This document shows, piece by piece, positions 4,239-53,952 of a stretch of 64,000 bases of DNA (its first letter is position 1; each line of letters opens with the position of its first letter). The DNA comes from Christensenella sp. UBA6880. GTDB lineage: Bacteria; Bacillota; Clostridia; Christensenellales; CAG-917. The stretch is from positions 82,608-146,607 of the forward strand of contig DKCG01000026.1 in assembly GCA_002449145.1 (NCBI GenBank), read 5' to 3'. A program made the translations under genes and the position numbers. The notes beneath the pieces are model-generated. The model saw only the letters and a program-made list of their open reading frames with translations. It was not told the origin of the DNA and made no database searches.

Positions 4239-5900
4239 CTATACTCGTACTTTGGCGGTTTCGTTGTCGCAACGTTTTGAACGAAAGGCAATTCGATTTT
4301 TCGTATGCTTTTCGTGCCGATTTTGCACCGTTTTTGTGCCGTTTTCCTTCGTCTTTTTGCGCATTTTTACGTGTTTTTTATGGCGTTTACTCGTCGATTT
4401 AATTGCGGTTTTGCTCGCCTTTTTAGGCGCAAGCATTTTTATGCAAGCGGTCACGTCAACCACGTTGAACGCGGATATGATGAGGAAGAAAAAGAAAAGT
4501 ATGTACACGCCCACGACGACGATTGCCGTGATATAGTCGGCGTATCTGCAAAGTAGTTTTGCGCCGAAAAGACCCGTTACGGCAAGCGGAATCGACAGCA
4601 AAACGAGGGGAAGATTTTTCTTGTGATTCGCGAACGAGCCGACTTCTTTTTTGAGGACTATGAGATTGATGATTGCTATGAGCAAAAAGCACAATCCCGT
4701 CGATAGTGCCATTGCGTAAATGCCGATGTATTTGGGCATAAAGAGAATACAAGGTATCATAGCGATTGCGCCTACGACCGTGCCGAGCAGCGTTACGCGC
4801 TCTTTTCCGAGCGAATTGAGCATAGGCGTGGTGGATTGAGCGGTGGCGATTGGAAATAGCATAAGCGAGCAGTAGGACACGAATTTGCCCGCCTCGCTGT
4901 CTTTGAACAGCAGTTGTCCGAGGCTTTGACCGAGCGGCAGATATATTGCGAAAAACAGACTTGCGATTATGACGGAAAACAGCAGAGAAGTGGACATCTT
5001 CGAGCGCACTGCGTCCATATTGCCCTTTGCGCGCAACTCTGCAACGTCGGGAACGAGCACGACGGACAGTGCGCCTATAAACGTCACGGGCGCCATAATA
5101 AGTGGCAACGCCATACCTGCGACTCTGCCGTATTGCGCCGTGGCTTCCGCAAGCGTAAGCCCTGCTTTTACGAGCATTTTGGGAAGAATGAGGGCGGTGA
5201 GCGACGCGCCGAGGGAAGTGATTATACGCGTTGCCGAAAGGGGAATGGTTTTCAACGTCAATTCCTTAAAACCGCTCGGTTTCGTCAGTCTTCCGCCCGT
5301 TGCGAAGAACAGCACGAGAAGTATAAGCACGCACGCAAGGTCGGAAATCGTCATTGCAAGAGCGATGTTTTGCGCGCCGTTAAGACGAGAAATCAAACCG
5401 CCGGTAAACGCAACGGAAAGCGCGATTTTTACAATCTCGTCGACAAGTTCGGTTGACGAAAACGCCAAAAACTTTTTTCTGCCCCAAAACCAACTGCGCA
5501 GCGACGCATAAAGCGTTGAGGTGAGGATTGTGGGCAACATAATGAAGAATATGGGCAAGCAATCGGGATTTGAAAACAGCGGTGAGATTTTCGTTCCCAA
5601 GCCGTAAAAGAGGGCGCAAATCGCCGCAGATATGCCGAGTCCAATAATCACGGAAGCGGTAAGAAGCGAGTTTTGCTTTTTGAGATTGCCGCTCGATTCC
5701 GCAATTTTTCTCGAAAGAACGGTGGGCGCGCCTGCGGTGATTGTAAAGAGCATAAGCAGAACGCTCAACGCAATTTGGTAGAGTCCGACGACTTCCGCAC
5801 CGAGCGCGCGGGACATCCACATTTTGAAGATAAACGAAACGAGCCTTGTCACGATTGAAAACCCCGTGACTATGCCGAAAGATTTTGCGGTGTTATTCAT
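4239..5900 (-). CDS. MOP-superfamily polysaccharide/lipid-II flippase (SpoVB/MurJ-like) with a long basic C-terminal tail
   Basis: Polytopic 553-aa protein. The N-terminus FGIVTGFSIVTRLVSFIFKMWMSRALGAEVVGLYQIA is typical of SpoVB/MurJ-type flippases. The last ~75 aa are Lys/Arg/His-rich. Confidence 0.75.
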   Translation of the reverse strand: MNNTAKSFGIVTGFSIVTRLVSFIFKMWMSRALGAEVVGLYQIALSVLLMLFTITAGAPTVLSRKIAESSGNLKKQNSLLTASVIIGLGISAAICALFYGLGTKISPLFSNPDCLPIFFIMLPTILTSTLYASLRSWFWGRKKFLAFSSTELVDEIVKIALSVAFTGGLISRLNGAQNIALAMTISDLACVLILLVLFFATGGRLTKPSGFKELTLKTIPLSATRIITSLGASLTALILPKMLVKAGLTLAEATAQYGRVAGMALPLIMAPVTFIGALSVVLVPDVAELRAKGNMDAVRSKMSTSLLFSVIIASLFFAIYLPLGQSLGQLLFKDSEAGKFVSYCSLMLFPIATAQSTTPMLNSLGKERVTLLGTVVGAIAMIPCILFMPKYIGIYAMALSTGLCFLLIAIINLIVLKKEVGSFANHKKNLPLVLLSIPLAVTGLFGAKLLCRYADYITAIVVVGVYILFFFFLIISAFNVVDVTACIKMLAPKKASKTAIKSTSKRHKKHVKMRKKTKENGTKTVQNRHEKHTKNRIAFRSKRCDNETAKVRV

Positions 5901-5924
5901 ATTTAAGAATATGAAAGGGAATAG

Positions 5925-5978
5925 TAATTAATAATTAATAATGAATAATTAATAATTGCGGGCGGGACACCCGCACCC
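5925..5978 (+). repeat. repeat module A, copy 1 (AT-rich all-frame-stop tract plus GC hairpin)
   Basis: The sequence AATTAATAATTAATAATGAATAATTAATAATTGCGGGCGGGACACCCGCACCC recurs at 34943-34997 and in shorter form at 53953-53983. Confidence 0.8.
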
Positions 5979-6002
5979 GAAACGAACACTCATTCGAAGC
6001 CT

Positions 6003-6530
6003 ACTTATACACGGAATGTGCAAATTCGCAGACGGAACACGAGCCGCAAGGCGGCGAGCCTATGAGCGCCGAACTTTCGTCACGCACAAGCCCTTTTGCT
6101 TCAACCGCAACAAGTTGTAGTTGTTCGCCTTTGTGCTTTGCGTTCCTCGTCCCACACGCCAAAAACTACGCTTTCATCATATTACTCAAACATAAGTTCG
6201 CTTGTTTTTGACGTGCGGGAACCCTTGTGCGTGTAGTACAAGCGACTGCGCCGTCTGTTGGCCACTGCCTGGCGCACAAAGCGCAGTGGCATAATGAGTG
6301 AAATGTCCCTATCTATGTGAGTGCCGTAAGGAACACAGTGACGGAATAGCGATTGTTACGAAGTCAATCGCGTCCTGCCCCCTCTTGCGAACGATGTAAA
6401 GTTTTGCAGAGAACTGGCGCAAGTTTGAGCAATAGGGGAAAGCCCGAAGGGAAGGGGTGACGTGTAATTTTAGAGTTCACGCCGTCAAACTTTTGTAGAG
6501 GAAGAACATTCCCCGTGAGGAAGGGGGAAG
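6003..6530 (+). repeat. repeat module T1, expanded copy (two nested insertions plus a tail ending in GTGAGGAAGGGGGAAG)
   Basis: Near-identical to 48915-49165 over the shared blocks, and interrupted at about 6078-6234 and 6326-6377. The tail at 6465-6530 ends with the T2-type purine terminus. Confidence 0.85.
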
Positions 6531-6619
6531 CTTTAATTTTATTTTTTTGCACTCGGCGCAAAGCAACAAAAAAACGCTCGCAAGTTTTGCTTGCGAGCGT
6601 TTCGATTTGTTTAATCAAA

Positions 6620-9600
6620 TCATTCCTTGTTCTCGTCGTATTTGTCGTGTTTTGCGTCGAGAGAAGGCGTTTCGATCGGGGATGCCGCTTTCTTTTCTTT
6701 CTTCTTTGCAATCGGCTTTCTAACTTTGCGTACGACGTAGACGATTACGACCACGATGATGAGCACTGCAAGGACGATTGTCGGAACCATCCACCAAAGC
6801 GCTTCGGTGTTGAAGGTGCTGTCAGGCGTTTCGTTGCCGCCGTTGTCGTCGTCGTCATCGCCCGTTCCTGCCGTTTCGTTGGAAACTTGGCGAGTGAGAA
6901 GGGTGCTGTCCGTTGCGGAATCGGTGACCGCTTTGTCGTATGCCGCTTCGTTGACTTCCTTGATGGTCACGTCGTCGAACATTGCGTAGCCGCTGGTGAT
7001 ACCCGTAACGGTGGTTTCGCCGTCAACGGTTTCGGATTCGAACTTGCCGAGCGAGAGTTTGACGGTGACGCTCGTCACGTCGTCGTCCATAGTCTTGACG
7101 ACAAAGGTGTATTTCGTCCAGTCTTGCGTGTCTGCCGCTTTGATTGCGGTGAAGGCGAAGGGCTTGTCGGATTCGTTTGCAGAGCCGAGATAGAGTTCGA
7201 CGTTTGCGCCGCTGATGTCGTCGTCGTTGGACATACCGTAGGTCTTGACCCAAACGCTGACTTCATAGAAGGAAGCCTCTTTGAGAGTGAACGTGGAACT
7301 CGTGTAAGTGTACGCGCTCTTTTCGGTGTTGTTGATGACGAGCATTTGCTTGCCGCTCTTTGCTTCGAGAACGCTGACGGGAATCCAGTTTGCTTTCTTC
7401 AAAGCAACGACCTTTTCTTCTTTGAGGGTTGCGATGATTTCTTCATCGGTCTTGCCTTCGAATCTTGCTTCTTTCTTTGCGTTTGCGATTTCTTCGTCGG
7501 TGGGTGTTGCTTCGTCGCTGTCGACGGTGTAGTCTGCGCCGAGAATACGTGCATAGTCAACGCCGTCAACGGTTTCTACTTCGTAGAAGTTGGGATCGGC
7601 ATAAACGATACCGCTCTTGGTTGCTTTTGAACTTGTCGTTCCGCTCACGCTGCCTGTCCAACCGTTGGGAGTTGCGAGTTCTTTTCTCGACTCGACTGCC
7701 GAAGAAAGAGAATCGAAACTGTCGGTGAGGAAGGAAAGTTTGTGGATGGTTTCGTTTGCGATTTCGGAAGTTTCCGCTTTGTCGTAGGTGTCTTCGTCGA
7801 TTGTGTTGTAGGTCACGTTGTCGAAGAATACGGTGCCGTTGGATTTTGCGTTTTCCGCTTGAAGTTCGCTCGTTTCGCCCTCAACCGTTCCGTAAGTGGT
7901 GTCTTGACCGAGCCAGAGATTGAGTTTTACGGAAACGCTGGATTGACCGGTGCGGATATAGAAGGTGTATTTTGCCCATTCGGATTCGGAAGCGGTCTTC
8001 GTTTCGACGAATGCGCTTGCGCCCGACTCGTTGGTAGAGTCAACGGAAGACTCGCCCGTGAGGTAGATAGAGAACGTTGTCTTGCCGACCGTTCTTGCAT
8101 AGACGGAAAGTGCATAGTAGCCGTTTGCCGAAAGCGTAACGCTGTTTGAAGAGAAGCCTGCCGCATAACCCGTCGTGCCGTCGTTTGAACCGATTGCGAG
8201 AAGTTGAGCCTTCTTGCCGGGGAAACTTTCAAGGTCGGTGTTTACGTCATAGAAGTTGCCGTAGAAGGAATCGAACACGGACGGCGCGATGTTGGGGAAT
8301 ACTGCCGTCGTTTGATCACTGTGAGAGAAGGACTTGTTGTCCGTCGTGTTCAAAGCGAGGATACCTGCAACGAGGTTGGATTCCGTCGTGTTGGGCTTCA
8401 AGGTCTTGTCGCTGAACGTCCAGTCGGAAGGCGTTGCGGCAACGTTTTGTTCGTTGAGGCTCTTGCCTTCTTCGAGGTTTTCGTCCTTAGTGTCGTAGTC
8501 GTCGAAAGCACCGTTGGTGAAGGTGTAACTCGAAGAAGCGGAAGCAAGGTCGACGTTCTTGACGTATGTGCCCGTGCTCGTGTTGTCGTATACGGTTTGA
8601 GAAATGCTTGCGCCGTTTATGTTTGCAACGAACATAGAGCCGCTCGTAAGAGTGCTCGACGCCCAGCGGTCGCCGCTGCCGAGAGCAAACTTCAAGGATA
8701 CGGTTACGTCTTCTTTCTCGCTGCCTTTGACGAGCATAGTGAGTTCGCACCAGTCGTTGAGGTAGGGATCGAAGCCGTCTTCGTCGGAATTGGTGTTGAT
8801 TTGAGAGAACGTCGTAAGAGCGGAATCGTCCTTTACGGTGTCGCCTTTCTTGACGAGATAGACGTATGCGCCGCTCGTTTCTTTGACGTCAACGGTCTTG
8901 ACCCAAACCGAGATACGATAAAATTTGTTCTTTTCGATCGTGAATGATTGAGTTTCGATTTCGTAACGGCTGTCGCCGGTTATTTTGATTTGGTATGCGT
9001 GTTTGTCAACCGTGTCGTAGGGAAGTTCGTCCTTGGAAAGTTCCACGACGCCTTCGCTCACGAGACCCTTTGCCAAAGGTGCGTCGGAATCGGTGAGGTC
9101 GTAGTTGGAAACCCAACCTTTAGGAATACCGTTGGTGTCCGCAATCACGTCGATGCCATCTTGCGAGGGCTTGCCGGTCGTGTTTGCGAGCATTCCGTCA
9201 AACGGCGCCATATTGGTGGTGGTGAGGTCGACTTTGAGACCTTCGTACGCGCTCATACCCGCTTCCGTCAAGTCGAGAGTTTGCTTGTCGTTCGCATCTT
9301 TGACGAGGGTAGAGGGAATGTCGCTTTCGGCAATCTCTTTGAGGTTGAGTTCGTCCATAAAGAGCCAGCCGTTAGAGAATGTGCCGTTTGCCTTGTACGT
9401 GGTTTGGGTTTTATCGGAGTTCCAGTTGGTGTATTCGACCGCCGTGTTGCTCGAAGTGCCTTCGGTGCCGAGCCATACGGTCATATTGTAACTGTAGTCT
9501 TTGAATTGGTTGCCTTGAATGTAGAAGGTGTAGGTCTTCCAGCCGTCGGTGGTGACGCCTTGGTCCGTGCCTGCCGCATAACTGTTGGAGTCGATCTTGG

Positions 9601-19291: not shown

Positions 19292-19885
19292 ATGAACAAG
19301 TTTTCAAATAACGTGATTCTCGCCTCGTCCTCGCCTCGCCGCAAGGAAATTCTTGCGGATATGGGCGTAAAATACGAGGTTATTCCCGCAAATATAGACG
19401 AGAGCGAGATAAAATCCCGTTTTCCGTTCTTGCTCGTCAAGAAACTTGCAAAAGCAAAGGCGGAACATATCGCAAAAGAGCATAGAAGCGACACGGTCAT
19501 CGCGGCGGACACAATCGTCGTGCTTGACGGAAAAGTGTACGGCAAACCGCACGACAGAACGCACGCTTTCGATATGATAAAGCAACTCAACGGACGCACG
19601 CACACCGTGTATACGGGCGTTTGCGTGACGTGCGAGGGCAAAAAGGTCGTGGCTTGCGTCAAATCGCTCGTCACTTTCAAAACCCTCACCGACGATCGGA
19701 TTTATGCGTATATCGACGACTGCAAGCCGTTCGACAAAGCGGGTGCATACGGGATTCAGGACAAAAGAATCGTGGAAAAATACAGCGGCAGTTACTCTAA
19801 CATAATGGGGCTGCCCAAAGAAAAACTCGGCGACATTCTCGTTCGAGTCGGAGTTATCAATGGCAACAATAGAACTATCGATTGA
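19292..19885 (+). CDS. maf: Maf-like nucleoside triphosphate pyrophosphatase
   Basis: Contains VILASSSPRRKEIL and AGAYGIQD motifs. The internal ATG at 19292 is taken as the start. Confidence 0.9.
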   Translation: MNKFSNNVILASSSPRRKEILADMGVKYEVIPANIDESEIKSRFPFLLVKKLAKAKAEHIAKEHRSDTVIAADTIVVLDGKVYGKPHDRTHAFDMIKQLNGRTHTVYTGVCVTCEGKKVVACVKSLVTFKTLTDDRIYAYIDDCKPFDKAGAYGIQDKRIVEKYSGSYSNIMGLPKEKLGDILVRVGVINGNNRTID

Positions 19886-20858
19886 CCTCGGAAGCAAGTT
19901 TATCACCATCTATCAAAAGGGCATAGGTCTCGTTTTGCGCGAGCCTGCAATCGCCATTGCGACCAAATCGCGCAACCGTCTCGAAATCCGCGACGCGGGG
20001 TACAGAGCGGAAAGCGTTATGACGGGTTCGCTCGGCGGCGCAAGAGTCATCGCGCCCATCAAGGAAGGCATAATCGTAGACGAAGAAATGGCGACTATGC
20101 TTCTTCATTACTTCCTCAAAAAGATTATCCCCGAAGGCATTTTTATGCCTAGAATCAAAGCCATCGTGTCCATTTGCGAATCCTCGTCGGGTTCGGACAG
20201 ACGTGCGGTGGAAAAGTGCTGCATAAAGGCGGGCATAAAGGAAGTCACGCTCGTGGAATCGGGTTTGAGCCTTCTTGCCTACACCAACAGCATAGGCGGT
20301 CTTTTCGTTGACATCGGCGGCGGCAAAACCGAAATATCCGCAGTCACCAATCACGGCATTGCGACGGGTTGCTCGGTCAATATCGCAGGCGACGCGTTCA
20401 ACAACGCAATCATAGATAGCCTTTATATGAATTACGGCGTAAAGGTGGGCGAATTTACAATCGAGAATCTCAAAAAATCCGCGCTTTCTTTCTACGTCAA
20501 CGACGAGGGCAGTTACGCCGTCAGCGGCGGCAGTGCGGACGGTTCGCCTCGTTCGCTCTACGTCACCGCAGAGCAAATGCGCGACGCCGTGATTCCGCTT
20601 GTGGACGACATCATCGAAGTCATAATGTCCGTCCTCAACCAAACGCCGCCCGAACTTTCCGCAGAGATACTTCGAAAAGGCATTTTCGTATCCGGCGGCT
20701 CGCTTCACATTCCGGGACTTATCGACTATCTCGAACAAGCGCTTGAACTTCCCGTCACGCCGCTCAAAGACATCGAGAACGCGATTGCAATCGGCGGCGC
20801 GAGATTCTTCGACGAAAAGAATCTGCTGTCTGATATGTTGGGGGTCAAATTGTATTAA
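19860..20858 (+). CDS. mreB: MreB/Mbl-like actin-fold rod-shape protein (divergent)
   Basis: The pattern IDLGSKFITIYQKGIGLVLREP...IAPIKEGIIVDEEMATMLLHYF parallels MreB, and it follows maf as in many Firmicutes. Confidence 0.7.
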   Translation: MATIELSIDLGSKFITIYQKGIGLVLREPAIAIATKSRNRLEIRDAGYRAESVMTGSLGGARVIAPIKEGIIVDEEMATMLLHYFLKKIIPEGIFMPRIKAIVSICESSSGSDRRAVEKCCIKAGIKEVTLVESGLSLLAYTNSIGGLFVDIGGGKTEISAVTNHGIATGCSVNIAGDAFNNAIIDSLYMNYGVKVGEFTIENLKKSALSFYVNDEGSYAVSGGSADGSPRSLYVTAEQMRDAVIPLVDDIIEVIMSVLNQTPPELSAEILRKGIFVSGGSLHIPGLIDYLEQALELPVTPLKDIENAIAIGGARFFDEKNLLSDMLGVKLY

Positions 20859-20863
20859 AGCGC

Positions 20864-21068
20864 GCTATTTGGCGAATAACTTTGGACGCGATTGACGCAA
20901 GCGTAACAATCGCTATTCCGTCACTTCGTTCCTTACAACGCCCTTTTGTTCACCCGTCACGTACGATTTAGTACGTTGGGCGGGTTCGCAAAAGGGCGTT
21001 TCCTTGTTCTTCATCTCAATAGTGCGCTTTAATGCAATTTGATGTCACTCATTCAAGGCGTACTTATC
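20864..21068 (+). repeat. composite repeat locus: 17-mer, rc52 block, H-type long hairpin, TTCTTCATCTCAATA box and x-block
   Basis: 20864-20880 equals 48888-48904. 20884-20936 is the reverse complement of 6326-6375. Arms 20937-20948 and 20989-21000 form a 12-bp stem. 21044-21068 resembles 5988-6010. Confidence 0.8.
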
Positions 21069-21104
21069 AAAATCTTTTGACAAAGAAAATCCAAAATCGG
21101 CAGA

Positions 21105-21135
21105 AACAGACATCTACATACGGCGTCTGTTTTTT
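21105..21135 (+). terminator. weak terminator-like hairpin upstream of minD
   Basis: AACAGAC (21105-21111) pairs with GTCTGTT (21125-21131) around a 13-nt loop, followed by a T-run. Confidence 0.4.
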
Positions 21136-21146
21136 ATTATGGGAAT

Positions 21147-21896
21147 ATGAGAAAAATCGTTGTTACTTCGGGTAAGGGCGGCGTCGGGAAAACCACCGTA
21201 ACCGCAACTCTCGGCAGAAAACTGGCATTGTCGGGATTCAACGTCGTGCTTGTGGACGGCGACGTCGGACTCAACAATCTCGACGTCGTGACGGGTATCG
21301 AAAGGCGAGTCGTGTACGACATAAGCGACGTGTTGCAAGGGCGGTGCAGAACGTTTCAGGCTCTTGTAAGCGATGCGGAAAGTCCGATGAAAATTCTTCC
21401 GTCGTCAAGAGATTGCAACGCAATCACGGCGCAAGCGTTTCGAGGGGTTGTGGACAGTTTGAGCGAGTTCGATTTCGTGTTTGTCGATTGTCCCGCCGGC
21501 ATAGAACACGGCTTTCACAGGGCGGTTTCGGCGTGCGAGGAAGCACTCGTGGTTACAACGCCGTCCGCTTCGGCAATCAGAGACGCGGACAAAGTGATAA
21601 GTTTGCTTGCGAGTTATCGATTGAAAGATATTTCGCTCGTTGTGAACAGAGTGCGCGCGGATATGATTGCAAGAGGCGAAATGCTCGGCGCAAGCGAGAT
21701 TAGTTCCCTTCTTCACGTTGCGGCGATAGGCGTGATTCCCGACGACGATATGATAACTTTGTATCAGCAACTCGGCACGATTCCGCAACACGCAATATCC
21801 AACCGCGCATACGACGTGCTTGCCAAAAACGTGGCGCAAAACAGCAAAGTTTTCGTTGATATTGCGCCCAAAAGGCGATTGAGGTGGCTGAGATGA
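21147..21896 (+). CDS. minD: septum site-determining ATPase MinD
   Basis: Deviant Walker A SGKGGVGKTT, and a basic amphipathic C-terminus KRRLRWLR. Confidence 0.9.
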   Translation: MRKIVVTSGKGGVGKTTVTATLGRKLALSGFNVVLVDGDVGLNNLDVVTGIERRVVYDISDVLQGRCRTFQALVSDAESPMKILPSSRDCNAITAQAFRGVVDSLSEFDFVFVDCPAGIEHGFHRAVSACEEALVVTTPSASAIRDADKVISLLASYRLKDISLVVNRVRADMIARGEMLGASEISSLLHVAAIGVIPDDDMITLYQQLGTIPQHAISNRAYDVLAKNVAQNSKVFVDIAPKRRLRWLR

Positions 21897-24108: not shown

Positions 24109-26817
24109 ATGAAAAGATTTAGATTGTTGGTAGTGTTATCACTATGCATATTGATTTGTTGCATATTGTGTGCTTGCAGTCCTAGCGATTCCGATTATGA
24201 TGACAGTAGTGTACAAAAATATAGTGTAACTTGGAAAAACTACGACGGCACGGTTCTGGAAAAAGATAGTGAAGTGGTATATGGAACAGTACCCGAATAT
24301 AACGGCATAACACCGACCAAACCGTCGACGGAACGCTATTCATATGCCTTCAACGGTTGGACACCGACAATCGTTCCTGTTACGGAAGATGTTGTTTATA
24401 CAGCGCAATTTGCCGAAACTACGAACACATATAGCGTAATCTGGGAAAATTATGACGGCACAATTTTAGAAAAAGATAATGAAGTGGCGTACGGAGAAGT
24501 GCCCGAATATAACGGCATAACACCGACCAAGCCATCAACAGGGCGGTATTCATACTCGTTCAACGGTTGGACACCGACAATTGTTCCCGTTACAAAAAAT
24601 GTTGTTTATACGGCACAATTCAACGAATCGACAAATACATATAGTGTAATCTGGAAGAATTATGACGGTACAATTTTAGAAAAAGATAACGAAGTGGCGT
24701 ACGGGGAAGTGCCCGAATATAACGGCATAACACCGACCAAACCGTCGACGGAACGTTATTCTTATGCGTTCAACGGTTGGACTCCGACAATTGTTCCTGT
24801 TACGGAAGATGTCGTTTATACGGCGCAGTTCGCAGAAACGATAAATACATATAGCGTAATTTGGAAGAATTATGACGGCACGATATTAGAAACTGATAAT
24901 GAAGTAGAATATGGGCTAATGCCCGAATATAACGGTGCGATGCCGATTAAGGGCGATGACGATATTTTCCGATATTCATTTATTGGCTGGGATAAAGAGA
25001 TTGCTCCTGTTGTGTCTGATATAATATATATTGCTCAGTTTTCCAGTGCATATAAAGAAGATTTTATATTTGAAACGGTTGGCAACAAATGTTTTTTAAA
25101 GAAATATGTTGGGGTAAACGAAAGCGTCGTTATTCCAAGTACATATCAAAACCATCCGGTTGTTTCGATTTTGTCAAATGCATTTGACAAAAAAGCGTGT
25201 GTAAAATCATTATACGTTCCTACCAGCGTTATTGAAATTCAGAAAAATGCTTTGAGCGGTTGTACAAATATAGAGCGGTTGATTCTTCCTTTTGTAGGCG
25301 ACGGCGCAGATATAGGATTTATCGGATATGTATTTGGCGCTGCAAATTATGAAGAAAACGCACAATGCGTTCCTTATTCGCTGTCATCAATAAGAATATA
25401 CAATGCGAATATTATTGCAAGTAACGCATTTTACGGTTGCAAATATTTAGAATATGTGGAAATTTCGGACGATATTACAAGTATCGGTGATGGTTGTTTG
25501 GCAGGTTGCGCGTCTCTTTCTAAAATGCGCTTGCCATTTGTCGGCGAATCATATAATAGCAAGAATTCATTTGGATATATATTTGGAACAAATAATTATT
25601 CTAATTCTCAAATCGTTTCACAAAACGGACAAATATTTTATATTCCGAATAGCCTTTCAGAAGTTGAAATTACAGGTGGATGTATATTGACAGGAGCGTT
25701 TGAAAATTGTGCTATGATTCAAAAAATAAGCATTGAACAAGGTGTTTCTATAATCGAGGAAGAATCCTTTGCAAATTGCAATTCGCTAAGAGAGATTTAT
25801 GTCGATTCGGCTGTGGAAATAAAAGCGTATGCATTTGCCAAATTGTGCAACCTTGAAAAAATAAAAGTGCCTATTCAGGATTATTCGTATAGCGATTCAG
25901 AATATTTGTGGACGTTATATCACATAGGTAGAATGTTTAATAAGGAAGAATATGGCGGATGCGATGCTATTACACAATCAAGTAAAGGAAAAGGAATAGG
26001 CAGTAATGCAGGCGTAGGTTCCGGCGGCGGAGGAACTTATTATATACCGACATCGTTAAAAGAAATTGTTGTAGATTGTAAAAACGATATTTTGGGTTAT
26101 GGGGCGTTAAGCGGTATTGCAAACGTTGAATTTGTTATTAACAATTGCACGGGCATCGCAGAGTATTCGTTGTCTCGAACGAGCATCAAAACATTTATCA
26201 TTCCGAAAGGATTGACAGAAATTCCAGAAGGCGCATTCAGTGAATGCGAGTTGTTGGAAAGTATAGTCATTCCTTATGGAGTGACTACAATACAAAATAA
26301 CGCTTTTAGGGGATGTATTTCATTGAAAACAATTGTTGTCCCTAAAACGTTATCAGGAATAGGTGAGCTAAGTTTTAGTGGTTGTAAATCGTTAGAAAAT
26401 ATAGATTTTATCAGAAACTGCGCAGAAGAATTTGTTATCGGAAGAAATGCATTTATTGAATGTACTGGGTTAAAAAAGTTGATTATTCCGAGCAATGTTT
26501 GTTCGATATATTATGGTGCTTTTGGCAACTGTTCGGAAATAAGCTCTGTTACTTTTGAGGACGGTTCAACTTGCGCATATATCGGCGGAGCTGCTTTTCA
26601 CGATTGTACAAAACTTGAATATGTAGTTATTCCTTCAAGTGCATTGACATTGGGAGAAAGTGTGTTTTCTGGTGACACATCATTAATTATATATGCAGAA
26701 TTTAATGAAAAACCATCAAGATGGGGTAATTATTGGAATAAGGATAACAATGCGGTTTATTGGTTATCAGAATGGAAATACGACGAATCGGGTTTTCCTT
26801 GTCCCAATAATGATTAG
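24109..26817 (+). CDS. surface lipoprotein with four 70-aa Listeria-Bacteroides-type B repeats and BspA-type leucine-rich repeats
   Basis: Lipobox LCAC-S. Repeats have the form YSVxWxNYDGTxLE...NGWTP...VYTAQF. LRR_5-like units such as IPxGVTTIQNNAFRGCISLKTIVVP follow. Confidence 0.8.
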   Translation: MKRFRLLVVLSLCILICCILCACSPSDSDYDDSSVQKYSVTWKNYDGTVLEKDSEVVYGTVPEYNGITPTKPSTERYSYAFNGWTPTIVPVTEDVVYTAQFAETTNTYSVIWENYDGTILEKDNEVAYGEVPEYNGITPTKPSTGRYSYSFNGWTPTIVPVTKNVVYTAQFNESTNTYSVIWKNYDGTILEKDNEVAYGEVPEYNGITPTKPSTERYSYAFNGWTPTIVPVTEDVVYTAQFAETINTYSVIWKNYDGTILETDNEVEYGLMPEYNGAMPIKGDDDIFRYSFIGWDKEIAPVVSDIIYIAQFSSAYKEDFIFETVGNKCFLKKYVGVNESVVIPSTYQNHPVVSILSNAFDKKACVKSLYVPTSVIEIQKNALSGCTNIERLILPFVGDGADIGFIGYVFGAANYEENAQCVPYSLSSIRIYNANIIASNAFYGCKYLEYVEISDDITSIGDGCLAGCASLSKMRLPFVGESYNSKNSFGYIFGTNNYSNSQIVSQNGQIFYIPNSLSEVEITGGCILTGAFENCAMIQKISIEQGVSIIEEESFANCNSLREIYVDSAVEIKAYAFAKLCNLEKIKVPIQDYSYSDSEYLWTLYHIGRMFNKEEYGGCDAITQSSKGKGIGSNAGVGSGGGGTYYIPTSLKEIVVDCKNDILGYGALSGIANVEFVINNCTGIAEYSLSRTSIKTFIIPKGLTEIPEGAFSECELLESIVIPYGVTTIQNNAFRGCISLKTIVVPKTLSGIGELSFSGCKSLENIDFIRNCAEEFVIGRNAFIECTGLKKLIIPSNVCSIYYGAFGNCSEISSVTFEDGSTCAYIGGAAFHDCTKLEYVVIPSSALTLGESVFSGDTSLIIYAEFNEKPSRWGNYWNKDNNAVYWLSEWKYDESGFPCPNND
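24220..25059 (+). repeat. in-frame 210-bp tandem repeat x4 inside the lipoprotein gene
   Basis: Units lie at 24220, 24430, 24640 and 24850. Units 1 and 3 are nearly identical at the protein level, and unit 4 has diverged. Confidence 0.85.
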
Positions 26818-27975: not shown

Positions 27976-28028
27976 GGCAACGGCAACACGCAAGCGTGCG
28001 TATTGCCGAGAGCCTTGCTAGGTTTCTG

Positions 28029-28264
28029 CACTACTAACCGCGCAAGCCCTCTTTACTCTCAAAATAAGACGGACAAAAACTCAAACCGCAATTCCGTGCG
28101 AGTGCTTGCTTGGTGGGTGCGCACTTCGTGCGCAAGCGGTAAATTTGAACGGCGGTTGGGCGCGACGCGTCAAACAATACATTCGGTGAATGTGTTGTAG
28201 CCAAAGCGAACGAGGCGGATTGCCTCGCAAACGCCGAAGTCCAAACACGTGAGGAAAGGGGAAG
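28029..28264 (+). repeat. repeat module T2, copy 1
   Basis: Aligns with 37726-37958 and 54056-54292. The 3' ~125 nt are nearly identical, and it ends GTGAGGAAAGGGGAAG. Confidence 0.85.
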
Positions 28265-28302
28265 CTTTTCTTAAAAAATATACAAACTACAACGATACGA
28301 AA

Positions 28303-30066
28303 ATGCAAGATTACAAACAAAAATATTTCGCTTTGCTCGGTGAAGTGGAAAAGCCCGCAAGATATGCGGGCGGCGAGTGGAATATCCCCGATATGAACAA
28401 GGAACGCAAGGGGGATATGGTCTTTTGTTTTCCCGAACTTTACGAAATCGGTATGAGCAATCTCGGCGTGGCGATTCTGTACGACATCGTCAACAAAACC
28501 GACGGTTACGTCGCAGAACGTTGCTATGCGCCTGCGCCCGATTTTGCGCAAAAACTCAAAGAAAACGATATTCCGCTTTTATCGCTCGAAACCAAAAAAC
28601 CGCTCAAAGATTTTACCGTCGTAGGTTTTTCGGTGGGATTCGAACTTTTGTACACCAACGTTTTGTATATGCTGGACTTGGCTAAGATTCCGTTCAGAGC
28701 CAAAGACCGTGACGATTCCTATCCCATTTTGCTCGCAGGTGGACCTTGCTCGGTCAATCCCGAACCGTTTGCGGACTTTTTCGACATAATTCTCGTAGGC
28801 GAGGGCGAAAACGCCGATATTGCGATACTCAAAGTCGTTGCGGAAGGCAGAGAGCAAGGCCTTTCCAAAGCGGAAATTCTAAAAAAAGTCAAGGGTATGG
28901 AAGGTGCGTACGTTCCGTCGTTGCATAAAGACGGCGAAAAGGTCGTAAAAGCCGTCGTGCAAGACTTTGAAAACGCCGAATATCCCACTCGTCCGCTCGT
29001 TGCGAATATAGAGGCCGTTCACGACAGAGCCACGCTCGAACTTTATCGCGGTTGCGCAAGCGGTTGCAGATTCTGTCAAGCGGGATTTTGGTATCGTCCC
29101 ATGAGAGAGCGCAGCGCAAAACGTTGCGCGCAAATCGCTAAAGAGATGGTGGACAGCACCGGCTTTAACGAAATATCCCTTTGCTCGCTGTCTACGAGCG
29201 ACTATACGGGACTCGAAGAACTCGAAAACGAACTTGGCGAATACTGCAAGCAAAAGCGCATAAATCTCGCGCTTCCGAGTTTGAGAATAAGCAGTTTCAA
29301 GCCCGATATGGCAAACAATTCGAGAAGAAGTTCGCTCACGTTTGCGCCTGAAGCGGGTACGCAAAGGTTGCGTAACGTCATAAACAAGAATGTCACCGAA
29401 GAAGAAATTGACAAAATTTCCGTTGCGTTCGAGGCGGGATACGACAGCGTAAAACTCTATTTTATGATGGGTCTTCCCACCGAAACCGACGAGGACATTC
29501 AAGGCATTGCGGAAATTTGCAAGCGTCTTAAACAACTGTACTGGCAAAAACGCTCGAAAAGAGGTTTGAACATATCCGTAAGTTGCGCGGTGTTTATTCC
29601 CAAGCCCTGCACGCCTTTCCAATGGGAAGCGCAAATCTCTATGGACGAGATGAAGCGCAAGCAAAACTATCTCAGAGGACTTTTGCGCGAAATAAAAGGC
29701 GTTACGTTCTCGTGGCACGGAGCGGAAACGTCCGTACTCGAAGCGGCGTTGGCAAGAGGCGACAAAAAGCAATCCTACGTCATCGAACGCGCCTATGAAC
29801 TCGGAGCGAAATTCGACGGGTGGAGCGAGCATTTCAAGTGGGACGTCTGGCAAAAGGCGTTTGCCGATTGCGGACTCAAAATGGAAGACTACTACGGCGC
29901 GATTCCGCTCGATAGAACTTTGCCGTGGGAATTTATAGATTCGGGCGTAAGCAAAAAATATTTGCTCAAACAGCGCGAACTCGCATACGAAGCGGTGACA
30001 ACCAAAAACTGCCGCGAAGGCTGCAACGGTTGCGGCGCGAACAGACTGGGAAGGTGCACGATATGA
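28303..30066 (+). CDS. TIGR03960-type B12-binding-domain radical SAM protein
   Basis: Radical-SAM motif CASGCRFCQAG. It is followed by a DUF2344 partner and RNase G, as usual for this family. ATG at 28303 is preferred over the GTG at 28249, which lies inside repeat T2. Confidence 0.8.
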   Translation: MQDYKQKYFALLGEVEKPARYAGGEWNIPDMNKERKGDMVFCFPELYEIGMSNLGVAILYDIVNKTDGYVAERCYAPAPDFAQKLKENDIPLLSLETKKPLKDFTVVGFSVGFELLYTNVLYMLDLAKIPFRAKDRDDSYPILLAGGPCSVNPEPFADFFDIILVGEGENADIAILKVVAEGREQGLSKAEILKKVKGMEGAYVPSLHKDGEKVVKAVVQDFENAEYPTRPLVANIEAVHDRATLELYRGCASGCRFCQAGFWYRPMRERSAKRCAQIAKEMVDSTGFNEISLCSLSTSDYTGLEELENELGEYCKQKRINLALPSLRISSFKPDMANNSRRSSLTFAPEAGTQRLRNVINKNVTEEEIDKISVAFEAGYDSVKLYFMMGLPTETDEDIQGIAEICKRLKQLYWQKRSKRGLNISVSCAVFIPKPCTPFQWEAQISMDEMKRKQNYLRGLLREIKGVTFSWHGAETSVLEAALARGDKKQSYVIERAYELGAKFDGWSEHFKWDVWQKAFADCGLKMEDYYGAIPLDRTLPWEFIDSGVSKKYLLKQRELAYEAVTTKNCREGCNGCGANRLGRCTI

Positions 30067-33426: not shown

Positions 33427-34965
33427 ATGAGAGAAGATTCAACAAAACTTAAACGCGCATTTTCCTTTGCGCAAGAGGGTATACGCAAATTTGCGTACAC
33501 CGATTTGTATATTTTGCTCGTTCTTGCAATAGTCGTGGCGGCGTGGATTTGGCAAAACGCAACGTTCGGTTTTGTCACGCTCATTCTCGTATCGTGTGCC
33601 GTTTTGGTGTTCTCGGACGATATTTTGCCGCTTTCGGTCAACGCTTTCGGCGCAATGCTTATGATTTTCAAAGCCGATGGCGAAGGTGCTATTGACATAA
33701 GCAGATTCTTTTATCTTTGGCCGACATTCATTCCGCTTGCCGTCGCAATTTTGATTTTCGTGGTCAGAAACACCGTCGCAAAAGTCAAAAACAAGCAGCG
33801 TTTCGTGCTCGGAAAGATGTTCTTTCCGCAAGTCGCGGTCAGCGCCGCGCTCTTGCTCGGCGGCGTGGGAACTATCGCGGCAAAGAATTATCTCACCGCG
33901 CTTCCCAACGTCATTGCGCTCGGCGTAGGCGTGCTTGCCGTGTATCTGCTCTTTGCAAACTTCATAAAAATCGACGAAAAAAGAGACTATGCAAAGTACT
34001 TTGCAAAGGTCGTTATGTGGATAGGCTTTGCCGTGTGCGTCGAAATGATTGTGCATATATCCCGCCTCGACATCAGTTCGCAAGACTGGTCTAAATGGTA
34101 CTGGGATTTAGGGTGGGGCAACCGCAACAATATCGCAACGTTCCTGCTCTTTTCCGCGCCTATGGCGATGTATTTGTCGACGAGGACGAGAAAAGGCTGG
34201 GCATACATCGTTATGGCGTTGTTCCAATACGCTTGCCTCGTTATGACCTTGTCGAGAGGCGGCATACTGTTCGGCGCGATTGCGGCGGTATTCGGCGTAG
34301 TTTTCTCGATTTTGAAAGCACCCAACCGCAAAACGCAAGCAACGATATGGGGCGTTGCAATCCTTGCCGCGCTTGTGATTTGCCTCGTAAAACTCGACCT
34401 CGTCAAAGGCATTATTTCGAGCCTTGCTGACAGAATAGACGCAGGCGGAAACGGCGACGTAACGTCGGGCAGATTCGCTCTTTACAAAGAGGCGTGGGAA
34501 CAGTTCGTAAAGCACCCGATTTTCGGCGCGGGTATGGGCTTTATCGGCACTCGCGACGGTCAGTTCCATTCGGAAAATATGAGCCAGTACTGGTTCCACT
34601 CGACGCTTTTCCAAGTGCTCGGCTGTATGGGTATCGTCGGTATAGCCGCTTACGTTTACTACTACGTCGTCCGCTTCGGAATCGTGTTCAAGGGTATGAA
34701 AAAGAATTGCAAATTCGCCTTTTTCGTGTTCGTTGCGTGGCTTGGATTCGAGGGCTATTCTATGATAGACACCGGTACTATGATTCCGTTCCCGAATATG
34801 ATGTTGGTTGCGGTTATGTCCTATATAGCGCAACTTGCCAACTTGCAAAGAAGCGAGAGCGAAATCGACGGCGTTCCGAACTCTCTACTCAACGAGGTAT
34901 ACGTGCGAGATACCGGAATCGACGTAGTGAGAGTTGATGCTAAATTAATAATTAATAATGAATAA
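33427..34965 (+). CDS. O-antigen ligase/polymerase (Wzy_C) family membrane protein
   Basis: Polytopic protein. The LSRGGILFGAIAA loop region and the periplasmic-type loop with FHSENMSQYWFHS are typical of this family. The last codons lie inside repeat module A. Confidence 0.75.
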   Translation: MREDSTKLKRAFSFAQEGIRKFAYTDLYILLVLAIVVAAWIWQNATFGFVTLILVSCAVLVFSDDILPLSVNAFGAMLMIFKADGEGAIDISRFFYLWPTFIPLAVAILIFVVRNTVAKVKNKQRFVLGKMFFPQVAVSAALLLGGVGTIAAKNYLTALPNVIALGVGVLAVYLLFANFIKIDEKRDYAKYFAKVVMWIGFAVCVEMIVHISRLDISSQDWSKWYWDLGWGNRNNIATFLLFSAPMAMYLSTRTRKGWAYIVMALFQYACLVMTLSRGGILFGAIAAVFGVVFSILKAPNRKTQATIWGVAILAALVICLVKLDLVKGIISSLADRIDAGGNGDVTSGRFALYKEAWEQFVKHPIFGAGMGFIGTRDGQFHSENMSQYWFHSTLFQVLGCMGIVGIAAYVYYYVVRFGIVFKGMKKNCKFAFFVFVAWLGFEGYSMIDTGTMIPFPNMMLVAVMSYIAQLANLQRSESEIDGVPNSLLNEVYVRDTGIDVVRVDAKLIINNE

Positions 34966-34997
34966 TTAATAATTGCGGGTGGGGTAAACCCCACACC
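34943..34997 (+). repeat. repeat module A, copy 2
   Basis: The sequence is AATTAATAATTAATAATGAATAATTAATAATTGCGGGTGGGGTAAACCCCACACC. It supplies the C-terminal ...LIINNE and the stop of the upstream CDS. Confidence 0.8.
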
Positions 34998-36069: not shown

Positions 36070-37677
36070 ATGAAAGACAAAAAGACGGAAAAAAGAGGCA
36101 TATTTTCGGGTTTACGCAAAGAGTTTTGCGCTTCCGATACGAAAAAGCACGACGAGGCGAGCCTCGCCGAGTTGCTTTGCGAGCACGACAAAAACAAAAT
36201 CGTGCCTTTTCATATGCCGGGGCATAAACGCGAGGATTTCGATTTTCTAAACGGCGCGCAAAAAATCGACATAACCGAGATAGAGGGCTTCGACAATCTC
36301 AACGACGCAAACGGAATCATATTGCAATCCGAAAAACTTGCGGCAGAGGTGTTCGGCGCAAAGCACGCAAGATTTTTGGTGAACGGAAGCACGGGCGGCG
36401 TTCTGGCGGCGATTCGTACGGTTTGCAATGCGGGCGACAAGGTTTTGATTGCTCGCAACTGTCATAAGTCCGTGTACAATGCGGTGGAAGTGTTCGGCTT
36501 GGTTCCCGTCTACGTTATGCCGTCCTATTTCGAGGAATACGGCTTTTACGGCTCGGTTTTCCCTTGTGACGTAAAAAGAGCGTTCGAGCAAAATCCCGAC
36601 ATAAAACTCGTGGTGATAACTTCGCCCACGTACGAGGGAATCGTCAGCGACGTAAAATCAATCGCGGATATATGCCGCAAAAACGGCGCGATTTTGTTCG
36701 TCGACGAGGCGCACGGCGCACATACCGGACTTTACAAAAAGTTCGGCGAAAGCGCGAGAAGTCTCGGCGCGGACATGGTTGTGAACAGTTTGCACAAGAC
36801 GTTGCCGTCGCTTACGCAAACCGCGCTTTTGTGCGTTTGCTCGGATAGAGTGGACACAACCGAACTCGACCGCAATCTTGCGATATTCCAAACCAGTTCG
36901 CCCTCGTACGTCCTTATGGCTTCCATCGACGGTTGCGTGAGAATGCTCAAAAACGACGGCGCGAAATTGCTGTCCGAGTGGAACAAGAATATCGACGATT
37001 GCAAAAAGTCGCTTGAAAGACTAAACAAACTTTCGATTTTCCAACCGAAAAAAGATTCGCGAGTTTTTGCCTACGACAAGTCGAAATTCGTCGTGCTATG
37101 CACGGGCGGCGCAATAAGCGGCATTGAACTCAAAAAGGTTTTGCGAAACGCATACGACATAGAACTCGAAATGGCAAGCGTAAACTACGCAATCGCAATG
37201 AGCGGCGCAGGGGATACCAAAGAGAATTTTTCCGCCCTCGAAAGCGCGTTGTTTGCAATCGACGACACGCTTGCTTCACGCAACGGTTTGACTACGACGG
37301 TTTTGCCGTCATTGCCGAAAAAGGCGTTTGAACCCTATCAAACACGCACTTTAAGTGGCGAATACGTCGATTTCGACAAATCGTCGGGCAGAGTAAGTCT
37401 TGAAAACGTATGGGTATATCCGCCCGGCTCGCCCGTCATCGTCAAAGGCGAAGAAGTGTGTCAGGAAGATATAAAAAATCTTACTTTGATGTACGAAAGC
37501 GGCGTAAGCGTATCGAGCGAAAAGCGAGAATTTCCGACATACCTTTATGTCGCAAAAGCCTGTAACGAAGACGGAACACGAGCCGCAACGGCGGCGAGCC
37601 ATTGCTCAAACAGCGTTGCGGCAAAGTCAATCGCCCAAGTCGTCATTCCGAGCGAAGCGTGGGAATCCCCTAAATAG
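36070..37677 (+). CDS. PLP-dependent Orn/Lys/Arg decarboxylase family protein, with the last ~36 aa encoded by repeat DNA
   Basis: FHMPGHK and SLHKTLPS (PLP-Lys) motifs. From about nt 37569 onward the frame runs through the T1-type repeat sequence. Confidence 0.8.
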   Translation: MKDKKTEKRGIFSGLRKEFCASDTKKHDEASLAELLCEHDKNKIVPFHMPGHKREDFDFLNGAQKIDITEIEGFDNLNDANGIILQSEKLAAEVFGAKHARFLVNGSTGGVLAAIRTVCNAGDKVLIARNCHKSVYNAVEVFGLVPVYVMPSYFEEYGFYGSVFPCDVKRAFEQNPDIKLVVITSPTYEGIVSDVKSIADICRKNGAILFVDEAHGAHTGLYKKFGESARSLGADMVVNSLHKTLPSLTQTALLCVCSDRVDTTELDRNLAIFQTSSPSYVLMASIDGCVRMLKNDGAKLLSEWNKNIDDCKKSLERLNKLSIFQPKKDSRVFAYDKSKFVVLCTGGAISGIELKKVLRNAYDIELEMASVNYAIAMSGAGDTKENFSALESALFAIDDTLASRNGLTTTVLPSLPKKAFEPYQTRTLSGEYVDFDKSSGRVSLENVWVYPPGSPVIVKGEEVCQEDIKNLTLMYESGVSVSSEKREFPTYLYVAKACNEDGTRAATAASHCSNSVAAKSIAQVVIPSEAWESPK

Positions 37678-37958
37678 AAACGAAAACTTTTTGGCGATTG
37701 ATAACAACCGCACTTGTTTTCGCAAGCACTAACCGCGCAGAGAATTTGAGCTATCAGTTCAAGCACGGATAAGAACTCAAACCGCAATTTCGCCAAATTA
37801 TCTGCTTGGTGCAGCGCACTTCGTGCGAAAGCGGTAAATTTGAACGGCGGTAGGGCGCGACGCGTTAAACAACACATCCAGTGAATGTGTTGTAGCCAAA
37901 GCGAACGAGGCGGATTGCCTTGCAAACGCCGAAGTCCAAACACGTGAGGAAGGGGGAA
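37569..37958 (+). repeat. composite repeat: T1 5' fragment, hairpin block (GTCATTCCGAGCGAAGCGTGGGAATC) and T2 copy 2 (37726-37958)
   Basis: 37570-37600 matches the T1 5' block, and 37726-37958 aligns with the other T2 copies. Confidence 0.85.
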
Positions 37959-37971
37959 ATGTGTTAAGTTC

Positions 37972-38000
37972 TTGACAAAGCCGATACAAAACAATATAAT
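37972..38000 (+). promoter_or_regulatory. candidate promoter of the SCIFF operon
   Basis: TTGACA (37972-37977), a 17-nt spacer, then TATAAT (37995-38000). GAAGGAG is the SD before the ATG at 38031. Confidence 0.6.
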
Positions 38001-38030
38001 AGTATATATTAACAGAAGGAGTCGTAAACA

Positions 38031-38177
38031 ATGAAAAGAATCACAACTTTGAAAACACGCGATCTCAACGAGAGCAAAAAGAACGGCGGCTGTGGCGAAT
38101 GCCAAACCTCTTGCCAATCTGCTTGCAAAACTTCCTGCGGCGTTGCAAACCAAAAGTGCGAAAAGGCTGCAAAGTAA
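38031..38177 (+). CDS. SCIFF (six-cysteine) ranthipeptide precursor, 48 aa
   Basis: MKRITTLKTRDLNESKKNGGCGECQTSCQSACKTSCGVANQKCEKAAK. It is not in the ORF track because it is shorter than 60 aa. It has a strong SD and lies directly upstream of the maturase. Confidence 0.9.
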   Translation: MKRITTLKTRDLNESKKNGGCGECQTSCQSACKTSCGVANQKCEKAAK

Positions 38178-38210
38178 TTTTTGGCAAAATCACAACTTAT
38201 TCGCAAAGAT

Positions 38211-43310: not shown

Positions 43311-43570
43311 ACTTATAAACGGAATGTGCTAATTCGCAGACGGAACGCGAGCCGCAAGGCGGCGAGGAAGCGAGCGTCGAGCTTGACGGATAGTACAAGT
43401 GAACGGGCGAGTGTGGATTTTTTCGCCCGTGAACGAGTGGCATAACAAGAGAACGATACTTTTCTATGCGAGCACCGAGTGTTGCCCCACGCAGAGCGGA
43501 CGCCGTGGGTTCCCTCAAAGTATGCAGAGGGGGAACGGCGGTAGGGGAAACACGTGAGGAAGGGGGAAAG
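43311..43570 (+). repeat. repeat module T1, diverged copy ending in the T2-type terminus
   Basis: It shares ACTTATAAACGGAATGTGC..GCAGACGGAAC.CGAGCCGCAAGGCGGCGAG and GAGAACGATACTTTTCTATG with the other T1 copies, and ends CACGTGAGGAAGGGGGAAAG. Confidence 0.8.
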
Positions 43571-43614
43571 TTCAAATTCAAGTATCTTATTAAAGTAAAG
43601 GAATAGCGTATAAA

Positions 43615-49165: not shown

Positions 49166-49229
49166 TTTTTTTTGGGTACACGATGAACACTCGTGTATAA
49201 AAAGAAACGAATATGAAGAGGGTAACTCT

Positions 49230-53947: not shown

Positions 53948-53952
53948 CAGTG

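Follow-up and report, generated by a model that had tools for sequence, protein, structure and literature searches.

A probable mosaic insertion between mreB and minD, formed around a long hairpin repeat, in an uncultured gut Clostridia bacterium

The stretch of DNA analysed here, 64,000 nt of contig DKCG01000026.1 from Christensenella sp. UBA6880 (hereafter the window), comes from an uncultured Clostridium-class gut bacterium whose nearest public genomes are metagenome-assembled genomes (MAGs) of approximately 90-96% nucleotide identity. Between its mreB gene (19860-20858, Pfam MreB_Mbl) and the start of minD (21147, assigned from the CbiA/ParA-type matches of the orthologue) lies a segment of approximately 210 nt, from 20859 to about 21067, that is most probably an insertion of mosaic structure. 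It consists of a long hairpin, a 52-nt module nested within it (rc52), and a short stub (the x-block) of a second, modular repeat referred to as T1/T2. The long hairpin (LH) is the name given to an ~130-nt palindrome, most probably a DNA element that lies interspersed in the genomes of a clade of human-gut Clostridia not yet cultured.

The initial annotation of this locus had listed its pieces one by one and had taken them for remains of a single longer mobile element. The pieces themselves are present. The 17-mer GCTATTTGGCGAATAAC occurs exactly at 20864-20880 and again at 48888-48904, far above chance (0.04 matches expected with up to 2 mismatches; 2 matches reached in 0 of 100 shuffles). 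It is followed by rc52 at 20884-20936, which matches 6326-6377 in reverse complement (94% identity over 35 nt, or ~52 nt with a 3-nt indel), by the ~64-nt hairpin H, whose 12-bp lower stem, described as its outer stem, pairs AACGCCCTTTTG (20937-20948) with CAAAAGGGCGTT (20989-21000), and by the box TTCTTCATCTCAATA at 21007-21021. The resemblance of the x-block CACTCATTCAAGGCGTACTTAT (21046-21067) to sequence just 5′ of T1 is real as well (3 mismatches, 0 matches expected by chance), although it had been placed slightly off, at 5990-6009 and not at 5987-6008. What finds no support is the status of these pieces as modules of one element, since a self-contained palindrome is made up of the 17-mer as 5′ arm, H as core and the box as 3′ arm. 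Folding of 20838-21050 gives a single hairpin of -100.8 kcal/mol (shuffles -52.0 ± 4.1, z = -11.8), in which 17-mer and box are complementary arms, H is the core and rc52 a side branch within the 5′ arm, and in which the outermost stem (20846-20863 with 21022-21041) pairs the mreB stop codon together with the last four codons of the gene. The parts of the locus are as follows.

20846-20863, plus strand: outermost 5′ arm of LH, with GTC AAA TTG TAT from the second base, the TAA stop codon (20856-20858) and AGCGC, as given by the fold
20864-20883, plus strand: conserved 5′ arm of LH, the 17-mer GCTATTTGGCGAATAAC followed by TTT, columns 14-32 of the model described below, covarying with the 3′ arm
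20884-20936, plus strand: nested rc52 module of ~52 nt with its own small hairpin, situated after AACTTTG and replacing the canonical TC
20937-21000, plus strand: LH core hairpin (H), in which the 12-bp lower stem leads through an internal loop to the conserved apex CACGTACG-loop-GTACG, as given by the fold
21001-21021, plus strand: conserved T-rich 3′ arm of LH, TCCTTGTTCTTCATCTCAATA, holding the box; family consensus TTtCtt-GTTcTTCATC, U-rich on the sense strand only
21022-21041, plus strand: outermost 3′ arm of LH, GTGCGCTTTAATGCAATTTG, which repeats the mreB 3′ end and stop codon as their inverse complement, as given by the fold
21046-21067, plus strand: x-block, a stub of 22 nt from the 5′ module (~45 nt, optional) of T1/T2, ending after CTTAT
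21068-21146, plus strand: native mreB-minD spacer, with TTGACA at 21077-21082 and a hairpin with T-run at 21107-21135, aligning with LH-free spacers of 78-84 nt

The same palindrome recurs with a common layout. Its outer stem typically reads TAAAAnnGCG...CGCnnTTTTA, with the stop codon of the upstream gene inside it, and its 5′ arm GCTAT(T/A)nnGCGAATAAC-TnnGTCA; the core stem is long and variable below a conserved apex, CA(C/T)GTACG-loop-GTAC, and the 3′ arm TTTCnnGTTCTTCATCnnAATA is followed by the closing half of the outer stem. From the start of the 5′ arm to the start of the box, canonical copies measure 90-93 nt, against 143 nt at mreB, which corresponds to the canonical spacing plus the 52-nt module. 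A seed alignment of 30 copies gives a consensus hairpin of 42 pairs, 35 of which show compensated double changes. The covariance model built from this seed finds exactly two copies in the window, one at 59821-59951 (133.8 bits) and that at mreB, the latter with only 54 bits because the insert lowers its score. In 673 kb of related draft genomes, sampled as 8-15-kb tiles, it finds 44 copies above 100 bits (loci from related genomes and metagenomes are designated by L-numbers). Scores of ~130 bits on the sense strand and ~50 bits on the antisense strand indicate that the asymmetry of LH is conserved. Metagenomes were scanned with a pattern drawn from LH alone, which provides a sample independent of T1 (at least 120 contigs, those with names being human-gut assemblies), and here the model recovered 111 copies in 100 of the loci, for a total of more than 150 in related genomes and gut metagenomes. 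In 108 distinct independent sequences, standard pairs fill 96.6% of the cells, compared with 69.8% after shuffling of columns and at most 46% when pairing partners were slid, the latter being the fairer control because the alignment was fitted to the model; 36 of the 42 pairs have changes on both sides. The second window copy and a fragment next to it are:

59821-59951, plus strand: canonical LH with variant arms CTAAATCGCGCCTAAC / GTTATGCATCGATTTAG; fold -62.4 kcal/mol, z = -11.4
59962-59995, plus strand: solo LH 3′ arm, remnant of a decayed copy downstream of the full one

LH occurs alone, in tandem arrays and as decayed halves; a full copy followed by decayed 3′ halves, as at 59962-59995, is also seen at L016, L076, L094, L022, L047 and L024.

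The kind of mismatch found in these stems sets LH apart from T1/T2. A structured RNA should tolerate G-U far more than A-C on the transcribed strand, and LH stems do not: G-U plus U-G against A-C plus C-A stands at 19:19 in the seed and at 52:78 in the independent set. The same analysis of 31 T1/T2 elements from the same genomes gave 144:1. RNAalifold favours G-U in both analyses, and it is therefore the contrast between the two that carries information. We conclude from these alignments that the complementarity of LH is probably maintained, or generated, at the DNA level, whereas T1/T2 appears to behave like a transcribed structured RNA.

LH is closely tied to the gene upstream of it. An open reading frame (ORF) of at least 100 codons on the sense strand has its stop codon in the 5′ arm of 39 of the 46 strong copies (~85%), and in 32 of those 39 at model positions 2-6; on the other strand such an ORF is found in 3 of 46, at odd offsets. 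The corresponding figure in the T1-independent sample is 88 of 129. In a minority of copies the frame continues to the TAA within GAATAAC, for example in uvrA (48901-48903) and in the gene 58535-59848, whose stop codon lies inside the 5′ arm of the second window copy. The stop codon is wholly inside the helix in 69 of 91 copies and has all three bases paired in 59 of these 69, including all 17 TGA stops facing TCA. The core stem is followed, on the sense strand only, by TCCTTGTTCTTCAT, with 5 T in the first 8 bases, and in three variants (L012, L057, L009) the LH 5′ arm is joined to a plain GC hairpin with a T-run.

Comparison with relatives supports insertion at mreB. Almost all of ~100 MreB homologues are 332 aa long and share the C-terminus ...LGVKLx, so the outer 5′ arm of LH is native coding sequence. 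Three relatives with MreB 90, 88 and 89% identical have LH-free mreB-minD spacers of 84, 78 and 196 nt, respectively, which argues that the ~210 nt found here were inserted. These LH-free relatives share ...TTTTGACAAAnAAATC...AACAGAC-loop-GTCTGTTTTTTATTAT...ATG, and the window retains the same sequence from ~21068. A relative with MreB 94% identical has LH and rc52 at the same place, on a contig that breaks inside them. As the 5′ arm is native and the outer 3′ arm GTGCGCTTTAATGCAATTTG is missing from the empty sites L109-L111, the DNA of this 3′ arm is new here and complements native mreB codons, with a flank-complementarity score of 8.0, higher than the value of 7.5 at the 99th percentile of mismatched-pair controls. 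An insertion of LH into a palindrome already present, with TTAATGCAATTTG downstream of mreB beforehand, was considered and is less likely, as the empty sites of relatives, even if these are 10-12% diverged in protein sequence, contain no such palindrome. The LH core at mreB is 96% identical to the cores at L012, L076 and L107. On the minD side of the insertion, a hairpin CAGAC...GTCTG followed by TTTTTT (21107-21135) lies directly 5′ of the minD start and is kept in all relatives examined (among them L109-L111), with or without LH; from its sequence it may be an attenuator or terminator between the two genes.

Extensions of the palindrome into coding sequence similar to that at mreB were seen at L071, L013, L056/L144, L065/L131 and L223/L146. 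In the first sample they made up 9 of 34 copies (p = 0.002), which suggested that every LH copies the end of the upstream coding sequence. This idea failed in the larger independent sample (9 of 107, p = 0.49), and the extension is therefore a trait of individual copies, not of the LH family.

LH is gained, lost and exchanged between close strains. The clearest case is L228 compared with L182, in which flanks 99% identical differ by a clean addition of 129 nt, one LH placed right after TAT TAAAA and ahead of a resident LH, with no direct target duplication in this pair. The orthologous loci L107 and L025 hold four LH units and one, respectively, and could be read as showing an AAA duplication, so that the pattern is inconsistent between the two filled/empty pairs examined; an automated search of flanks for target duplications was swamped by repeats in the downstream flanks. 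L193 and L173, also with 99% identical flanks, carry the same two LH types in different order, together with two synonymous changes in the last two codons, which suggests allelic recombination as a likely cause. At orthologous gene ends of different species, arms and cores of LH differ while outer stems are related (L022/L051/L066; L076/L094). Tandem arrays were observed at L200 (14376-14840), L203 (850-1750) and L107 (5900-6480, minus strand, period 151 nt), and the three units at L200 have unrelated cores, each with a 3′ arm complementary to the same gene end. Recombination among dispersed copies, tandem duplication and deletion would explain most of this turnover, and true transposition may take place in addition.

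We therefore favour, as the probable account of the locus, an LH insert with a nested rc52 and a T1/T2 stub. LH would spread as DNA and, folded as a single strand, would be recognised through its shape together with conserved unpaired motifs (GCGAATAAC-TnnGTCA, TTTCnnGTTCTTCATC and the TACG...GTA apex). By analogy with REPIN/RAYT or IS200/IS605-type elements, it would insert directly 3′ to a stop codon, which is TAA(A) or at times TGA, with no duplication of its target, and copies would then be reshuffled by recombination with one another. At some of them, including that at mreB, the palindrome may have been lengthened into the coding sequence by replication template switching, an established maker and repairer of inverted repeats that writes reverse-complement copies (PMC8794818, PMC13100816, PMC7202029). 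In the mreB transcript, the predicted fold would make of the core hairpin and UCCUUGUUCUUCAU a terminator or 3′-end stabiliser, while the outer stem would sequester the stop codon; if LH does terminate transcription, UCCUUGUUCUU is the tract in which 3′ ends are predicted to fall. The variants joined to a plain GC hairpin and T-run support such a role.

Several observations weigh against this account. LH has neither a transposase nor a recombinase linked to it; an IS200 TnpA query gave no tblastn match in 1.7 Mb of sampled DNA, which is a weak test; and no donor was found for the clean insertion at L228, the best match being 83% identical. Polymorphisms such as that between L193 and L173 resemble allelic recombination rather than transposition, and the extension into coding sequence was not replicated in the larger sample. 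The H core was not recognised as a terminator by a simple scan, in which loops had to measure 3-8 nt. Finally, the strict orientation of LH relative to genes would most simply reflect a function in mRNA, which sits uneasily with the absent preference for G-U. A phage origin was rejected, as neither the LH pattern nor the T1 core is present in IMG/VR.

A bolder view, which we hold to be doubtful, is that LH belongs to an unrecognised class of DNA hairpin that targets stop codons, and that a dedicated enzyme, or a fold-back coupled to replication, sets a palindrome defined by its shape precisely where an ORF ends and builds the outer stem from the stop and last codons of the host gene. Its footprints would then be the paired TGA/TCA and TAA/TTA stems, the L200 arrays and the mreB copy. 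If so, the ends of translation and of transcription of dozens of genes would be hostage to a mobile hairpin.

Could LH instead be a conserved cis-acting RNA, such as a 3′-UTR hairpin, a terminator or a regulator of translation termination, that arose at many genes and was selected in mRNA? Such a role would fit the orientation of LH, which strictly follows that of the upstream gene, the pairing of the stop codon, the U-rich tract found after the core on the sense strand alone, the variants whose 5′ arm is joined to plain intrinsic terminators, and the very strong covariation. Nevertheless, we consider this unlikely. The stems lack the G-U preference so marked in T1/T2, LH can be present or absent between genomes whose flanks are 95-99% identical, and cores 96% identical stand at unrelated genes of different genomes; tandem arrays and decayed halves also speak against it. 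Moreover, only 2 copies are found among the ~50 genes of the window, and LH is therefore not a general signal of gene ends.

The proposal of the initial annotation, that all modules are pieces of one longer and possibly ORF-bearing mobile element from which the loci derive by internal deletion, appears about equally improbable, even though part of what it predicted was borne out. The order of modules (5′ arm, core, box, x-block, T1, common 3′ end) is never violated where they co-occur, and each module recurs in relatives. LH, x-block, T1 and the common 3′ end are contiguous in the predicted order at L002, L022, L047, L006, L013, L130 and L121, and at L065, L025 and L107 without most of the x-block. 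The two outcomes named as fatal to the proposal, the lack of any longer contiguous version and an inconsistent order, are therefore not what is seen. An internal deletion, as had been suggested, is also apparent at the uvrA site, where the LH 5′ arm is fused to T1, and both loci with LH and rc52 followed by a shortened x-block (the window and L077) look as if one unit had travelled. These two other window loci are:

6326-6377, minus strand: copy of the 52-nt module, inverted, within the T1/T2 element 5987-6540
48880-48911, plus strand: LH 5′ arm remnant at uvrA, AAAACCGT followed by the 17-mer and TGCGTCA, fused directly to T1

What tells against a single parent is how rarely the modules keep company. 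In the T1-independent sample, 99 LH copies have downstream sequence that reaches 400 nt or more, and T1 lies within 400 nt downstream of only 13 of them; most T1 copies are without LH, and LH is also found alone, in tandem and in halves. With LH at the 3′ ends of genes and T1/T2 for the most part upstream of them, the two will often share a spacer, and adjacency would be expected in any case. The junctions between them differ in length and sequence, and their stems have opposite G-U/A-C signatures. No ORF-bearing full-length version was found. Distances from T1 to the 3′ end fall into discrete classes of 208-648 nt in 58 of the 59 listed, and none exceeds 650 nt among element copies; the 59th, of 5346 nt, pairs the T1 at the uvrA end, which is without the standard 3′-end motif, with an unrelated motif downstream. 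Matched LH arms enclosing 400-4000 nt were absent from 1.7 Mb of tiles enriched in LH and T1, an absence that is provisional; the only matched arms more than 400 nt apart are those of the tandem arrays L200 and L203.

Nor does rc52 qualify as an ancestral part of LH. Its ten copies occur in two contexts. Four are found within LH at the same spot after AACTTTG, in copies whose arms and cores differ (window, L108, L040, L077), and L121 has a shortened one. The other six, including that at 6326-6377, are inverted in T1/T2 at a fixed site between ...GAGTGCC and CCCC.... Given these two contexts, rc52 is an independent small module; it is absent from canonical LH and missing from ~95% of copies. 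The x-block is the opening stretch, 22 nt long, of a 5′ module of ~45 nt that is optional in T1/T2 (ACGAACACTCATTCAAGGCGTACTTATAAACGGAATGTGC...): 67 of its 83 instances have the T1 core within 70 nt downstream, and most others have T1 variants. In the window it stops after CTTAT, where native spacer begins. As L077 combines LH and rc52 with a shortened x-module too, LH, rc52 and stub may have been copied as a block.

At the uvrA locus, the 17-mer at 48888-48904 encodes the last codons and stop of the gene, and the orthologues L124, L127 and L165 have a complete LH at the corresponding place. Judged by its sequence, this locus is evidently a deletion fusion of an LH 5′ arm to T1. Taken together, the loci are best read as juxtaposition or nesting of separate repeats followed by deletion, not as derivatives of one parent.

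T1/T2 itself, a repeat of ~270 nt built from modules, combines covarying stems with single-stranded motifs that do not vary, and is located in the window at 5987-6540, 43311-43577 and 48905-49182 and partially at 37566-37600, with optional inserted domains of 158 nt (6077-6234) and 52 nt (6326-6377). The T1 core alone matches more than 107 stretches of DNA in related MAGs, T1/T2 has no match in Rfam, and a co-directional ORF starts within 250 nt downstream of 65 of 95 T1/T2-type elements, a count made without a control. It has the look of a structured RNA in multiple copies, so far undescribed, whose inserted domains are optional.

Among known systems, the REP, REPIN and BIME repeats of Enterobacteria and Pseudomonas, mobilised by RAYT HUH transposases, come close to LH: they are abundant extragenic palindromes at gene 3′ ends, often a few bases from the stop codon, that form mosaic arrays with other motifs, show compensatory changes, do not duplicate their target and carry no ORF (PMC2817692, PMC3337134). 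Unlike these, which are palindromes of 20-40 nt with a GTAG-like head or inverted doublets of such palindromes, LH forms a single unbroken hairpin of ~130 nt whose asymmetric internal loops are conserved, lacks a GTAG-type head, has the stop codon inside its stem and an orientation fixed to the gene, and has no RAYT linked to it. ERIC/IRU, Correia (NEMIS) and RUP elements are likewise imperfect palindromes of 100-160 bp in transcribed intergenic regions, co-transcribed, with insertions at fixed internal sites and the ability to add or replace gene ends (PMC3184786, PMC10969869, PMC3049150), although they have conserved terminal inverted repeats, duplicate TA or another target and occur in either orientation. 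[quoted passage not shown] Derivatives of IS200/IS605 (PATEs) cause no target duplication, insert 3′ of a short specific sequence in fixed orientation and pass through single-stranded hairpin intermediates, and their orientation is biased with respect to replication. They differ from LH in having two different small subterminal hairpins where LH is a single palindrome from end to end.

Intrinsic terminators resemble LH in their outer TAAAA...TTTTA skeleton, in having a stem rich in GC and in a sense-strand tract rich in U, and the ordinary terminators of the window give weak matches to the LH model through the outer skeleton only. In contrast to them, LH is longer by a factor of 3-4, recurs as a family whose arms and apex are conserved, and starts at or before the stop codon. 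That LH units are attC-like sites of an integron-like system, folded single strands recombined by a tyrosine recombinase, is very improbable: both are defined by structure, have variable stems with conserved asymmetric unpaired bases and lie directly after an ORF, LH with the stop codon in its outer stem, its ~130 nt are within the attC length range, and its inner boxes end in AAC and begin with GTT, but these boxes (GAATAAC / GTTCTTC) depart from RYYYAAC / GTTRRRY, the genes that LH follows are housekeeping and other genes whose synteny is conserved (mreB-minD, uvrA and others) instead of promoterless cassettes arrayed by intI, there is no ORF between tandem units, and an integrase was seen near no copy. 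The whole window has no Rfam match at gathering score, permissive Rfam scans of 20800-21160, 5900-6620 and 37540-38040 gave only chance-level or generic terminator matches, no tRNA or tmRNA gene occurs in the window, and searches of the literature turned up nothing that describes these repeats, or any repeats of this clade. We judge LH to resemble elements of the REP/REPIN/ERIC type in its working and to belong to none of them, that is, to be a new family.

Other repeats of the window add to this picture of intergenic DNA. A second repeat of ~235 nt (28039-28274, 37728-37969 and 54060-54302) ends in the same CACGTGAGGAAGGGGGAA motif as T1/T2 and shows a compensatory stem change (GCGCAC/GTGCGC and GCGTGC/GCACGC). 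In other genomes its 5′ half is joined to the x-block and T1 (L013, L041), and T1 core with linker precedes it at 37566-37969 and in L017. An AT-rich block, AATTAATAATTAATAATGAATAATTAATAATT, followed by a GC-rich hairpin occurs at 5926-5980, 34943-34990 and 53939-53990, two of the copies being 98% identical, and is found beside LH and T1 elements in related genomes as well. At orthologous intergenic sites of genomes ~90-95% identical, wholly different repeat modules can be present (27976-28303 compared with L032 3615-3746; 5901-6619 compared with L017 and L074), for example the 235-nt element in one and the AT-rich block with GC hairpin in the other. Intergenic content therefore turns over much faster than genes.

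Repeats also affect reading frames and assemblies. The 535-codon ORF 36070-37677 runs ~110 nt into T1 core and linker before its stop, so that its C-terminal ~37 residues are encoded by the repeat or its real stop is mis-set. Directly 3′ of a 235-nt repeat lies a small Cys-rich ORF (38032-38178, MKRITTLKTRDLNESKKNGGCGECQTSCQSACKTSCGVANQKCEKAAK), a candidate that we take to resemble precursors of SCIFF-type peptides modified by radical-SAM enzymes. Three tandem 210-nt repeats, ~84% identical, at 24219-24935 encode a repeated 70-residue protein domain within the 902-codon ORF 24109-26817. T1 matches very often lie within ~100 nt of tile or contig ends (e.g. L008, L011, L018, L038, L043, L064), and L108 has its end within LH. 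Many contigs stop inside such repeats, which account for a large share of the breaks in MAG assemblies of the clade.

If this description holds, a clade of common uncultured gut Clostridia would carry several dozen LH copies per genome, by extrapolation from 2 per 64 kb, each burying the stop codon of the upstream gene in a hairpin of ~50 bp. For annotation, repeats of the LH type would supply or mask the ends of genes such as uvrA. For gene expression, they are candidate terminators, RNase III substrates or obstacles to ribosomes at termination. The contrast between G-U and A-C pairs may separate hairpin repeats acting at the DNA level from those acting at the RNA level within one genome. For the biology of repeats, LH would be a palindrome family of fixed orientation and stop-codon specificity with no known enzyme, and the surprising part is that a palindrome of DNA type should have this specificity and orientation.

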